Shown piece after piece: positions 3,004-41,215 of a stretch of DNA of 41,371 bases. The DNA is from Simkaniaceae bacterium (GTDB lineage Bacteria; Chlamydiota; Chlamydiia; Chlamydiales; Simkaniaceae). Each line of letters opens with the position of its first letter. Within the stretch, counting starts at the first letter, position 1. The position numbers and the translations under genes were made by a program. The stretch covers positions 1 through 41,371 of the forward strand of contig JBFWSA010000020.1 in assembly GCA_050248615.1 (NCBI GenBank), given 5' to 3'. The notes beneath the pieces are model-generated. The model made no database searches. It had not been told where the DNA came from and saw nothing but the letters and a program-made list of their open reading frames with translations.

Positions 3004-3027
3004 TTTGAGTACATTTTAACTCTTCTA

Positions 3028-3192
3028 ACCTGAGTTTTGGGTTTTTTCTTATAGATAATCAGAGGGTTTTTCTGTTAGATTTTTGTTTGTTTTGCACGCA
3101 GGAAAGGGCCAAAGTGCCCTTTTCAAGTGAAAACAAGCAAAAAGAAAGAGAAAGACCCCTGAGAATCAATAAGAAAAATCCAAAACTCAGGT
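3028..3192. mobile_element. MITE-like palindromic element E1 (165 bp, AC...GT ends, TTCTA direct repeats)
   Basis: AACCTGAGTTTTGG (3027-3040) / CCAAAACTCAGGTT (3180-3193); the whole element is an imperfect hairpin. TTCTA at 3023-3027 and 3193-3197. Confidence 0.75.
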
Positions 3193-3214
3193 TTCTAAGA
3201 GTTAAAATAGGCTT

Positions 3215-5002
3215 ATGGATTTAAACATCATTCCCAAAGAGCCCGGTGTGTATCTGATGAAGGACAAAAAGGGGGAGGTCCTTTATGTAGGAAAAGCCAA
3301 AGACCTTAAAGTACGGGTGAAGCAGTATTTTGTGCCCGGACGTGATGGGCGTCTCATGGTTCCCTTTTTAACATCTCAAATTGAAGCGATTGAGACCATT
3401 GTGACTTTTTCAGAAAAGGAAGCCCTTCTCCTCGAAAATACCCTGATTAAACGGTACCGCCCCAAGTACAATGTTCTTCTCAAAGATGATAAAACCTTTA
3501 TCAGTTTAAGTGTGAATCACCGTCACACGTGGCCCCTCATTAAACTCACACGCTATAAGGGTAAACCCAAAGGAGATGCGCTCCACTTTGGCCCCTATAC
3601 GAGCGCTTTTGCTGCCAGACAAACCCTCGATCTCATGAATCGTGTTTTTCAATTGCGCCAGTGCTCGGATCGCGAGCTCCACTCTCGCTCGCGTCCTTGC
3701 CTCCTTTACGCGATCAAGCGGTGTTTAGCCCCTTGTGTGGGGAAGTGTTCTAAAGAGACTTATGAGCAGGAGGTCAAACGGGCGATTCAATTTTTGAAAG
3801 GACATGACAAAGAAGTGATCGAACAACTCAAAAAAGAGAGGGAGGAGGCTTCTAACCAAATGGAATATGAAAAAGCCGGAGCCCTTCACCAAACGATCCT
3901 ACAAATTCAGCACGTTACGGAGAGTCAACAATCCATTATTCGCACCAAAGGGAAAGACTGCGATGTCTTTGCTCTCTATCATGAAGGAAAGCACCATATC
4001 ATTGCAGAGCTCATTTTTCGCGAGGGGCGCCTCATCGGAGCGGATCATTTTAAGTTTGTCGAAATCGCCTCGACTGATCAAGAGATTTGGGAAACTTTTT
4101 TAGTGCAACACTACCAAGAAAAAACCCCACTCCCTCCCGAAATACTTCTTCCCCTGGAACTCCAGCAAAAAAAGGCTCTCGAAGAGATCCTCTCTATTAA
4201 AATTGTCTACCCGCAAAAAGGGGAAAAACAGGCTCTTATTCGCCTTGCACATAAAAACGCTAAAGCTCTCTTTTCCCAAGAACTCTCTAGAGAAGAACTC
4301 CTCTTAGATCTCCAGGAAACCTGCGGTTTAGATCGATGCCCTGTCCGGATTGAATGCTTCGATACTTCCAATATTTCGGGAACAGACCTGGTAGCTTGCA
4401 TGGTGGGATTTACTGATGGGAAGCGCGATAAAGAGCGTACGCGCCTCTTTAAAGTGAAGGGAATTGATAAGCCCGATGATTATGGAGCTTTAAAAGAGGT
4501 CCTCACTCGACACTACACAAAAGCTAAGGAGAAGGATGAACTCCCCGATTTAACTCTCATTGATGGAGGAAAAGGACAACTCAACGTGGCTTTAGACGTT
4601 TTTCAGGCACTCGAAATTGCCTCAGTAGATGTGATTTCCCTAGCAAAAGAAGAGGGACGTCATGATAAAGGGCTCCATTTTGAAAAGATCTTTACTCCCC
4701 ACAAAAAAGACCCCATCTTCCTTTCTCCCCGCTCCTCAACTCTTTTTATTTTGCAACAAATCCGAGATGAAGCTCACCGCGTGGCAATCACCTACCACCG
4801 TAAAAGACGGACCAAGCGTATTATCCAAACAGAGCTCGAGGGCATTCCCGGTATTGGCCCTAAAAAACGGACCCTTCTTCTCAAACATTTTGGGAGTGTA
4901 AAGCAGCTCAAAAAAGCGACTCTCCAGGAGCTTCAAGAACTTAAAGGACTCAATCAAAAAGACATTGAATCTATTGAAAAGTTTCAACAAGATTCACGGT
5001 AA
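3215..5002 (+). CDS. uvrC: Excinuclease ABC subunit C
   Basis: GIY-YIG (PGVYLMKD..VLYVGKAKDL), Cys cluster, RIECFDTSN, LIDGGKGQL, QIRDEAHR, C-terminal HhH (GIPGIGPK). Confidence 0.97.
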   Translation: MDLNIIPKEPGVYLMKDKKGEVLYVGKAKDLKVRVKQYFVPGRDGRLMVPFLTSQIEAIETIVTFSEKEALLLENTLIKRYRPKYNVLLKDDKTFISLSVNHRHTWPLIKLTRYKGKPKGDALHFGPYTSAFAARQTLDLMNRVFQLRQCSDRELHSRSRPCLLYAIKRCLAPCVGKCSKETYEQEVKRAIQFLKGHDKEVIEQLKKEREEASNQMEYEKAGALHQTILQIQHVTESQQSIIRTKGKDCDVFALYHEGKHHIIAELIFREGRLIGADHFKFVEIASTDQEIWETFLVQHYQEKTPLPPEILLPLELQQKKALEEILSIKIVYPQKGEKQALIRLAHKNAKALFSQELSREELLLDLQETCGLDRCPVRIECFDTSNISGTDLVACMVGFTDGKRDKERTRLFKVKGIDKPDDYGALKEVLTRHYTKAKEKDELPDLTLIDGGKGQLNVALDVFQALEIASVDVISLAKEEGRHDKGLHFEKIFTPHKKDPIFLSPRSSTLFILQQIRDEAHRVAITYHRKRRTKRIIQTELEGIPGIGPKKRTLLLKHFGSVKQLKKATLQELQELKGLNQKDIESIEKFQQDSR

Positions 5003-5474
5003 AGGGCTTTTGATATCCAAATTGACGGGCTAGAAGAGTTCCCAACTCCTTTTGAATCTCTTCGAAAAAACCCTCTTCTTTTTCTTCGGGAAGGGTCACA
5101 AAAACCTCTAAAGATTGCTTCCCATGAATCACCACATCTGCATAAGGCTCTTGGTTCGGAAAGCGCCCTTTCCAATAGTTACTGACCATCTCAGAGATGA
5201 GGGACTCCTCCACTTCGATTTTCAAGCCTTCCATCTCAATCTGAAAAAAACGTCTCCGATTTATGAAATAAAGAGCCAATAAGAGTAAAAAGGATCCCCC
5301 TATCAGAGTGGCTCCCAAAATCTGATAAAATGCAAGACTTTCTAAAAGAGAGTTAATCAAAAAAATACGGAGATGGGGAGCATAAGGCAAAACAAAGAAA
5401 AACAAACCGACTGTCAAAATAAAAAAAACGATAAAGAAATGAAGGGCAGAAAAGAGGATATTTCCTACTTTCAT
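4971..5474 (-). CDS. Membrane protein, possibly an AmaP-like anchor for Asp23
   Basis: Two N-terminal hydrophobic helices followed by a soluble domain; 2 bp downstream of the Asp23-family gene. Confidence 0.65.
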   Translation of the reverse strand: MKVGNILFSALHFFIVFFILTVGLFFFVLPYAPHLRIFLINSLLESLAFYQILGATLIGGSFLLLLALYFINRRRFFQIEMEGLKIEVEESLISEMVSNYWKGRFPNQEPYADVVIHGKQSLEVFVTLPEEKEEGFFEEIQKELGTLLARQFGYQKPFTVNLVETFQ

Positions 5475-5476
5475 GC

Positions 5477-5935
5477 TTAAAACTCTTCGGTATTAAATTC
5501 TTTTTCAGTCTCTACTTCTTTAGTTTCCACTACGCTCGCTAAAGGGACATCTGAAATGAGGGCTTTAAAAACTACGTGCACACAGGCAACATGGAGCCCT
5601 GTCAGATGGGTCACTTCAGCAGCAATTTTTGTCTGAATCTCTTCGGCTTTTTCCGGAATCGATATCCCATGTGCGATGTTCACTTCCACTTTGATACTGA
5701 CGGAGTGATTTTTCTGGTCTTGCTCTACATGGATCCCTTTAATCCGTTCGTTACCTTCCCTCCCTAGAAGATTATCTAGGAGTGTCCCTTCTAGAAGAGC
5801 CACTCCTTCAATCTCAGCTAGACATTTAATGACAATCGCTTGGAAAACTCGTGTCTCGATATCTCTAATAAAAACCGTATCTGCAAATTTCAGCTCTTTT
5901 GTATCGAGCTCTTTAAACTGATCATGCATAGACAC
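5477..5935 (-). CDS. Asp23/Gls24 family envelope stress protein
   Basis: EIEGV...KGIHV...VEVNIAHGISIPEKAEEIQTKIAAEVTHLTGLHVACVHV matches the Asp23 pattern. Confidence 0.88.
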   Translation of the reverse strand: MSMHDQFKELDTKELKFADTVFIRDIETRVFQAIVIKCLAEIEGVALLEGTLLDNLLGREGNERIKGIHVEQDQKNHSVSIKVEVNIAHGISIPEKAEEIQTKIAAEVTHLTGLHVACVHVVFKALISDVPLASVVETKEVETEKEFNTEEF

Positions 5936-5996
5936 CTTTCAATTTTACTTTTTTCAGCAGTGTATCGAAATCACGTGAATCATCCAAGAGATCTTT

Positions 5997-40163: not shown

Positions 40164-40166
40164 CTG

Positions 40167-40640
40167 TTGGCGGCCTGTTCCTGTGCACTTTCATTGGATT
40201 TCTCAAATTTCCATGCCTTTCAGCGCCCTTATCTCCAAGCCCAAGTACTTTTCTACGAAGGTAAATCTGATTCTCTTCCCTTATGGCTAGTCGCTTTTTT
40301 CGAGCAAAAAACCAGCACCTTTCTTACCCGCAATATTCATCTCCTTCCAACCCCTCCAGAAGCTCCAGAGCATCACAAAGCCTATACTATTCTATGCAAA
40401 ATGAATGAAATTTCCGAAAGGATCTTCAAAGAACTTCAATCTCAGCCCTCTTGTCAAATAGAGTATAGAACGACTACGAGTAGTCACGATAACTATCTAT
40501 TCCGTTATCCTGAGCTTATCCAGATCCTGGTCACCCCAAAGATCCAGGAAACTCACCCAGACATTCAAGTTCAGGTCCAAACGACGCCCCTTGTTTTAGG
40601 AACCACCTACACAACAGTAACAGCTACCCAAAACTCTTGA
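40167..40640 (+). CDS. Hypothetical protein
   Basis: 157-aa ORF with a TTG start 3 nt after the upstream stop; start uncertain. Confidence 0.5.
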   Translation: MAACSCALSLDFSNFHAFQRPYLQAQVLFYEGKSDSLPLWLVAFFEQKTSTFLTRNIHLLPTPPEAPEHHKAYTILCKMNEISERIFKELQSQPSCQIEYRTTTSSHDNYLFRYPELIQILVTPKIQETHPDIQVQVQTTPLVLGTTYTTVTATQNS

Positions 40641-40651
40641 AATCCCTTTTA

Positions 40652-40813
40652 ACCCCGAAGTGCTAGTTATTTTTCCCTTTAGCACCGCACAAATAGGTGA
40701 GATTTTTTGGAACGAAGTGAAGGCCAGCTCTAAAGAGCTGTCCGAGCTTTGATCCGTAAAAGGTCGCCTATTTATGTGGATGATAAAGGGAAAAATAACT
40801 AGCACTTCGGGGT
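40652..40813. mobile_element. MITE-like palindromic element E8 (162 bp, ACCCC...GGGGT ends, TTA direct repeats)
   Basis: Perfect 31-bp IR (40651-40681/40784-40814); apical GGCCAGCTC-TAAA-GAGCTGTCC. Confidence 0.82.
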
Positions 40814-40857
40814 TTAAAGAAAACTCCCCATCAGGTATCATCCCCCATCCCTATGAT

Positions 40858-40940
40858 GCCGATGTGGTGGAATGGTAGACACGGTAGATTCAAAATCTGC
40901 TCTTAGCAATAGGGTGCTGGTTCGAGTCCAGTCATCGGCA
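40858..40940 (+). tRNA. tRNA-Leu(CAA)
   Basis: Acceptor GCCGATG/CATCGGC, anticodon arm GTAGA-TTCAAAA-TCTGC (CAA at 40891-40893), long variable arm, GGTTCGAGTCC T arm; CCA not encoded. Confidence 0.96.
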
Positions 40941-41080
40941 TTTTTCCCTTTAACACCGCGAAATTAACACATCAGCTGCGCCGCTACCCCTTCGTTAAGG
41001 GGGACCCTTCAGGACTCGGCGCTCATATTGTATCTACGTCCATTTTCTTTATCTAGTCAGCCTCTGAGACTTAAACAACT

Positions 41081-41215
41081 AAGTGCCATTTATTTTTCTC
41101 TTTAGCGCTGCATAAGTAGGTAAGATTTTTGAGACTGAAGTGAAGGGCAGCTCCGTAGAGCTGCTTAAGCTTTAGTCCCCAAAATATTGCCTATTTATGT
41201 GGATGATAAAGGGAA
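41081..41215. mobile_element. Degenerate direct copy of E8 (E9) with eroded termini
   Basis: Shares GCCTATTTATGTGGATGATAAAGGGAA exactly with E8; apical GGGCAGCTC-CGTA-GAGCTGCTT. Confidence 0.75.

Follow-up and report, generated by a model that had tools for sequence, protein, structure and literature searches.

The 41,371-bp stretch of DNA analysed here (the window) is contig C20 (JBFWSA010000020.1) of a Simkaniaceae bacterium genome (G000; 2.04 Mb, 69 contigs, 96% complete). It carries intergenic hairpin elements of about 160 bp together with shorter and eroded copies, which are assigned to families F0-F16, labels coined in this analysis (Table 1). [quoted passage not shown]

Hairpin elements of the window

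Of the eleven pieces that a first-pass annotation had listed, ten form rods when folded (z -4.8 to -15.8, each compared with 30 dinucleotide shuffles). The seven full-length intergenic palindromes are real, as each folds end to end (z -4.9 to -15.8) and has 7-86 BLAST loci in its own genome. Three of the four shorter or eroded pieces also stand (31436, z -6.5; 38300, z -4.8; 41071, z -5.7), but the fourth, 40940-40965, is rejected as a hairpin (z +1.5, no BLAST copy in the genome). Its 26 nt show 85% likeness to an arm of the F11 element at 40652, and they abut a tRNA-Leu(CAA) gene at 40857-40941 (together 40857-40965). The palindromes at 36879-37042 and 37047-37203 had been taken for separate neighbors; instead, F3 sits within the left end of F4 with its own 7-bp target duplication. 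As noted at first pass, the window has no transposase: none is present among the 23 window open reading frames (ORFs) scanned, and five transposase families searched for in the genome matched nothing on this contig. At window position 11163, one strain contig (X8) has a 21-nt insertion.

Table 1. Elements of the window and the one open DDE transposase frame of the genome; boundaries exclude the target duplication, and those of 36658-36819 are taken from the fold.
Element	Position	Strand	Length	Ends	Target duplication	Remarks
F7 hairpin MITE	3027..3193	.	167 bp	IS982-type, AACCTGAG	3 bp, TCT	Sits within the loop of a small palindrome that flanks it (3013-3208)
F1 hairpin MITE	17116..17279	.	164 bp	IS5-type, GAACCTATCC	Variable 2 bp, AT here	Interior common with IS630-ended F2
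F0 hairpin MITE	21687..21846	.	160 bp	IS630-type, TACTCAA	TA	Bears the phylum-wide core
F2 copy with internal deletion	31438..31545	.	108 bp (full length 166)		TA	
F8 hairpin MITE	36658..36819	.	162 bp	GAG(A/G)CC	5 bp, AATTT	Shares apex and arm with F11
F3 hairpin MITE	36879..37042	.	164 bp	IS982-type, ACGCGAATTC	7 bp, TAGAATA	Nested in the left end of F4
F4 hairpin MITE	36874..37204	.	159 bp in intact copies		TA	F3 insertion divides the left end; body 37043-37204
Collapsed F1 remnant	38302..38343	.	42 bp	Both retained	AT, retained	ispD/truA junction
F11 hairpin MITE	40652..40813	.	162 bp	ACCCCGAAG	3 bp	
Eroded F11 copy	41075..41214	.		Right end replaced		Same replaced end on G000 contigs C3 and C12
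IS with open 297-aa DDE transposase frame	G000:C9, L257 1415-2482		1068 bp		9 bp	

Copy number, mobility and transposase-type ends

A family-blind scan of the genome found 224 long hairpins, 133 of which measure 160-179 bp, compared to five hairpins and none of that size (0/5) in a block-shuffled genome. A family search seeded with the hairpins of 140-200 bp gave 380 loci (188 of ≥140 bp) that occupy 2.1% of the genome and form 22 clusters, 17 of them multi-copy. Without the duplication, the modal length is 158-167 bp in 14 families and 172-173 bp in two, based on 143 copies with both ends intact. Only 1 of 193 near-full copies lies inside an ORF, and 115 of 324 loci have a neighbor within 60 bp. 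The practical consequence of elements that make up about 2% of a genome is that they break assemblies.

The TA duplication is present in F0, F2, F4, F5, F10, F12, and F16, with TA flanks at 42 of 43 F0 copies, and absent in F1, F3, F7, F8, F9, F11, and F13. F1 has a variable 2-bp direct repeat (AT, TT, CT, TA, AA) in 28 of 34 copies (cross-copy control 0.32), F3 a 6-7 bp duplication in 8 of 11 (control ≤0.03), and F8 a 5-bp duplication in 4 of 5 (control 0.15). The duplication is 3 bp long in F7, F9, and F11, and 9 bp in F13, where one is perfect and one matches at 8/9 among 3 copies. Of the 143 copies, seven lie inside another element, and three such F1 insertions leave exactly two extra bases when compared with intact hosts. 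The intergenic gap holding the F0 element at 21687-21846 measures 179 bp in this genome, 16 bp in G001, and 13 bp in G010 and G024, leaving the orthologous site empty in these three relatives; none of the ten relatives compared has F0 at the orthologous 21684 site. In the relative G006 (L010), the orthologous gap holds a distinct short palindromic element, which indicates that the site was hit independently. Elsewhere in the genome, G000:C14:23349-23761 is a nested array in which F5 and a short F10 have entered F6 at CTAG sites. Preferred insertion into hairpins or terminators was considered and rejected (6/122 sites against a control of 0.049), F7 being the only family with such sites throughout (2/2).

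For comparison of the termini, IS630, IS982, and DDE_Tnp_1 loci were gathered from 121-151 genomes of the order and their terminal repeats extracted, with six transposases confirmed by NCBIfam. An IS630 (L044) shares 22/30 and 23/30 positions with F0-type ends, over about 27 nt, and TATAC and CTAG ends are both IS630-type. An IS5 (L245) matches the F1 ends at 16/18 and carries a TT..TT duplication. Among IS982 elements, L069 matches the F7 ends at 18/20, L067 and L096 match them at 16/20, and L074 matches the F3 ends at 17/20, whereas unrelated IS ends score 9-14 in the same comparison. The likeness stops within 10-28 nt inward, and interior scores equal those of shuffles (nine IS tested). The F11 ends, which look IS982-like, gave a weak match to the collected IS. 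The genome itself contains a broken 777-bp IS5-family element with F1 termini (G000:C55:3968-4744; L047 269-1045), whose transposase lies in several pieces with stops. The elements are thus short, non-coding, dispersed, and multi-copy, with terminal inverted repeats (TIRs), target duplications, and IS likeness confined to the ends, features that agree with the definition of type II MITEs in the available text of PMC10969869. Together with the nesting and the empty orthologous site, these features support the first-pass reading as non-autonomous MITEs.

Among five F0-rich genomes, an IS630 transposase was found in one (1/5), and among five genomes with swapped ends, DDE_Tnp_1 was found in one (1/5), its ends not matching. 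No IS1182 partner was detected at strict thresholds (0/91 genomes); the same count for an ISL2-type partner (0/91) is uninformative, since the probe was silent in all controls. A search for SbcD gave one weak match below the cut-off. On contig C22 (L013), fragments of IS630 and of an IS that is presumably IS30-like are nested between two F1 copies. Downstream of the L257 IS lies an open frame of 312 aa in which W-x-C / CPYC motifs recur; it probably encodes a zinc-ribbon repeat protein.

Shared cores under different ends

Interior profiles were built with the outer 28 nt removed, and pair-preserving shuffles used as a control reached ≤7.8 bits. F1, with IS5 ends, is linked to F2 (TA ends) and to a CTAG-ended element of G022 at 18-44 bits, where controls reached 6 bits at most, with 61% identity inside and 6-9/24 at the ends, and an identical 22-nt apex is common to F1 and a CTAG-ended element. 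The interiors of F8 and F11 are linked at 15 bits and those of F6 and F13 at 16 bits (apex only), and the F0 interior is linked to F5 and F10 by way of relatives. The earlier statement that the primary sequences are mostly unalike is therefore correct by BLASTN but not by profile comparison of the interiors.

The F0 core pattern, comprising 24 fixed letters, was found in at least 122 stretches of GTDB genomes; among the 80 matches listed, 62 have chlamydial titles and four are titled Verrucomicrobia or archaeon. Full flanks were available for 67 core matches, and 65 remained after two with unclear ends were removed. Their ends are TATAC (38), CTAG (15), TAATAC (7), G-ends with a 3-bp duplication (3), GAACC (1), and GGGCT (1); in six cases the label was assigned by hand after the first tree. 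Between a core and its nearest counterpart with another end, identity is 70-87%, compared to 25-55% for the outer 28 nt. The 17 chosen examples measure 157-164 bp, three of them with G-ends and 3-bp duplications, and a single clade of CTAG-ended cores is rejected (p-AU 0.006). By sequence comparison, interiors are common to several end types, with one core of about 105 bp under at least six kinds of terminus; the most clear-cut examples across families are F1/F2 and the single locus L341. The first-pass proposal of several lineages under a common size constraint is correct in that the termini belong to different IS families, but the interiors are homologous across end types. No chimeras of 140-185 bp with one end of each type were found in this genome.

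The two arms change together. In a set of 25 F0 relatives with less than 88% identity, both partners have changed in 50 of 71 pairs (0/500 shuffles), and 95.7% of cells in F0 relatives are paired (31-40% in slid controls). Double changes within the same copy are more frequent than expected in F0 (15 vs. 0.6), F1 (49 vs. 4.4), and F3 (20 vs. 1.1), and the covariation and same-copy changes fit copying from arm to arm. Islands of the core that stay invariant are CAAAGC/GCTTTC, which includes a C.C mismatch, as well as GATC and an apex of A/T. AA/TT tracts recur with a period of 11.4 nt (range 11.1-11.8), in register with the center across families (0-1/300 shifts), and peak at about 16, 28, 38, 52, and 65 nt from the center (44 elements below 62% identity). 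Without F0 relatives the period is 11.2 and the register likewise holds (0-1/300 shifts); an intergenic control is not significant (p 0.12). The tract register may be explained by shared ancestry, so the families are not independent in this respect. Short forms of 31, 45, 66-69, and 81 bp have junctions at internal repeats, and the several junction types among the 66-69 bp forms fit repeated collapse.

F0 matches occur in 70 of 300 genomes of the order; relatives and, by title, most of the listed F0-core matches are chlamydial, and the core occurs across many chlamydial families. Samples of 80-380 kb from 11 other genomes, five of which were chosen as F0-rich (with several regions of G022, G155, and G144 chosen for F0 matches), show many new termini. 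Hairpins of 155-180 bp number 19 in the sample of G144, 15 in G022, 14 in G155, 11 in G175, and 10 in G033, and 4, 2, 2, 0, 0, and 0 in the six others. The length peak is absent in the samples of G001, G112, and G041, and forms of 70-100 bp outnumber full ones in G033. Hairpin families of about 231 bp, some 70 bp above the main class, are present in G155 (L197-L206) and G033 (L127-L136). F0 is 94-95% identical between G022 and G000, two genera whose flanking genes are about 68-70% identical, and this far closer similarity suggests horizontal spread. As for vehicles, viral contigs gave no core match, and plasmids and phages gave no F0 or F8/F3/F4 match.

Interpretation and relation to known systems

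The elements are probably non-coding type II MITEs that combine a conserved palindromic core of about 105 bp with exchangeable ends of about 28 bp, are moved in trans by DDE transposases (IS630, IS5, IS982), and repeatedly capture new ends, while the core may aid synapsis. The transposase would recognize the terminal 10-28 nt and then cut and paste the element. Template switching, which according to the available text of PMC8794818 can fix stems, may copy arm to arm in the folded strand and keep the arms matched, and an end newly gained on one arm could be copied onto the other to give a new family in two steps. Slippage across the hairpin would then produce the short forms. The core may be retained since it brings together two ends about 160 bp apart, either as a bent symmetric loop or as an extruded cruciform. 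IS50 work on length dependence reportedly points to helical-phase limits on short transposons, and such limits, along with the conservation, phasing, and length of the core, suggest that its help in bringing close ends together would fix the length. The fixed length likely reflects a shared, constrained core capturing new ends more than convergence of independent lineages. Shared descent plus constraint likely accounts for much of the length constancy, although not all cores can be linked to each other.

Several observations weigh against this reading. No transposition was observed, and no joint skipping any window element was found in contigs from five DNA runs of five studies, although this is weak evidence as the contigs are mostly broken inside the repeats. 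No intact partner was found for any family in the 69-contig assembly, the sole open DDE transposase frame (Table 1) has ends matching no family (10/18), and partners for F4, F8, F9, and F13 were not found. The F3, F4, and F9 interiors as queries gave no cross-family profile match, and the IS5-ended F0 core is the single locus L341, which lacks an intact duplication. The 24 fixed letters used for picking inflate core identity. The paired columns make the clade tests too liberal, and rejection is marginal for a TATAC clade (p 0.047) and absent for TAATAC (0.58) and G-ends (0.29). Double changes are few in F2 (0), F4 (1), and F5 (3). Lastly, the 31-bp form has 34 copies whose termini are conserved to nearly the same degree as those of full copies (0.76 against 0.65 mismatches per 14 nt); if these forms move, 160 bp is not needed.

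The main rival, ahead of independent convergence, accepts that ends are swapped and attributes the retention of the core to a role as RNA or as a single strand: one strand would fold into a rod that is either neutral to transcription, processed, or bound by a host factor, and this would set the length. In 44 non-redundant elements, one strand carries the purine-purine mismatches (306 vs. 60, where 5000 null draws reached 257 at most), and on that strand G.T exceeds A.C (106 vs. 75, p 0.025) and the fold is more stable in 15 of 16 families. Of 48 F0 relatives, a set filtered on the adjacent motif, 45 retain the C.C mismatch site, and the tract period is near the 11 of an A-form helix. However, orientation to flanking genes is unbiased (40 sense, 45 antisense), and exchanges in F0 relatives are almost all between Watson-Crick pairs (G.T 35, A.C 41). 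The purine-purine strand also coincides preferentially with the C-rich strand of replication (107:66, p 0.002), and a bias that follows replication direction points to DNA. We regard such a role as unlikely.

Alternatively, independent MITE lineages, each derived from its own IS and turned into a hairpin by template switching, could have converged on about 160 bp through a generic size limit, with the interior likeness arising from A/T-rich low complexity or occasional recombination. Many bacterial repeats are indeed 150-170 bp long (Correia to 157, bcr1 ~155, YPAL ~168) in the portions of PMC3184786 available, template switching is described as able to make and maintain stems (PMC8794818, in part), and several interiors could not be linked by profile. 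Yet the interiors do not resemble those IS whose ends match, six end types are found on one core in which 24 letters are exact, F1 and a CTAG-ended element have the same apex, and the tract phase is common to families. This explanation is already weakened for the F0 and F1/F2 cores, and overall it appears improbable. A non-DDE route, in which REPIN-like or reverse-transcribed elements move as single strands by an HUH enzyme or a reverse transcriptase, would suit full-length hairpins of fixed length with conserved helix defects, as in REPINs and attC sites, but is very improbable, as the 96% complete genome has neither a Y1 transposase (PF01797, 0 matches) nor a reverse transcriptase, and the duplication lengths and termini follow DDE IS families.

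A broader form of the end-capture reading is more tentative, and we lean slightly away from it. The ~105-bp core would be an ancient hairpin, bearing A/T tracts in phase and coded mismatches, that serves the whole phylum as an "adaptor" replicator independent of any enzyme: whatever two IS ends it carries would become transposable at about 160 bp, and it would survive the loss of a transposase family by capturing the ends of a different one. Most or all chlamydial hairpin families of about 160 bp would then descend from it, forming a modular class of mobile DNA apart from MITEs made by IS deletion. In the usual view, MITEs are decaying remnants tied to one IS family. The point that is new here is that interiors are common across end types, so that these MITEs have modular cores and ends, and one transposon parasite has likely switched repeatedly between unrelated transposases while keeping its length. 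A core that changes its transposase partner offers non-autonomous elements a way to survive the loss of their helpers, and it becomes testable why complete hairpins of 150-170 bp are so frequent among bacterial MITEs.

The literature searched (subscription journals and supplements were outside its scope) describes no chlamydial MITE family, the first-pass annotation likewise having known of none like this, and no exchange of ends between IS families. The available text of a genome-wide MITE survey does not mention chlamydiae, although its supplements may list some elements (PMC11602168). Other sources, also seen in part, cover only repeats >200 bp (PMC2878342), treat IS only (PMC9723776 and PMC13229535), or describe unrelated hairpins of 22-40 bp (Sissivirus preprint). 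Rfam at the gathering score matched only the tRNA in the window, and six core loci gave generic hairpin matches below the cut-off.

REPINs are hairpin repeats with fixed spacing and several families per genome. The present elements differ from REPINs with RAYT in their target duplications and DDE-type ends, in a genome without the Y1 enzyme. They resemble IS630, IS5, and IS982 in the terminal 10-28 nt, and IS5 also in the 2-bp duplication, but are hairpins without coding sequence or interior similarity. Coxiella QMITE2, Yersinia YPAL/RU-2, and Bacillus bcr1 are similar in size (~155-190 bp), long stems, and direct repeats, and bcr1 shows compensatory changes (PMC3184786 and PMC5896051, available text). 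Each of these is a single family found in one genus, bcr1 resembles a cruciform and has two stem-loops, and the portions of the published descriptions available give neither a shared core nor tract phasing. Homology to ERIC is not indicated, as F0, the only query used, matched none of 5,426 E. coli genomes by blastn. Type II MITEs such as Correia (CREE), RUP, and ERIC are likewise non-coding and intergenic, with TIRs, hairpin potential, and IS likeness at the ends only, and their available accounts report no end exchange (PMC10969869, PMC3184786). Of the present families, seven have a TA duplication like theirs and seven lack it. The elements described here differ from them in comprising many families with 2- to 9-bp duplications and one length, and in having one core with the ends of several IS families.

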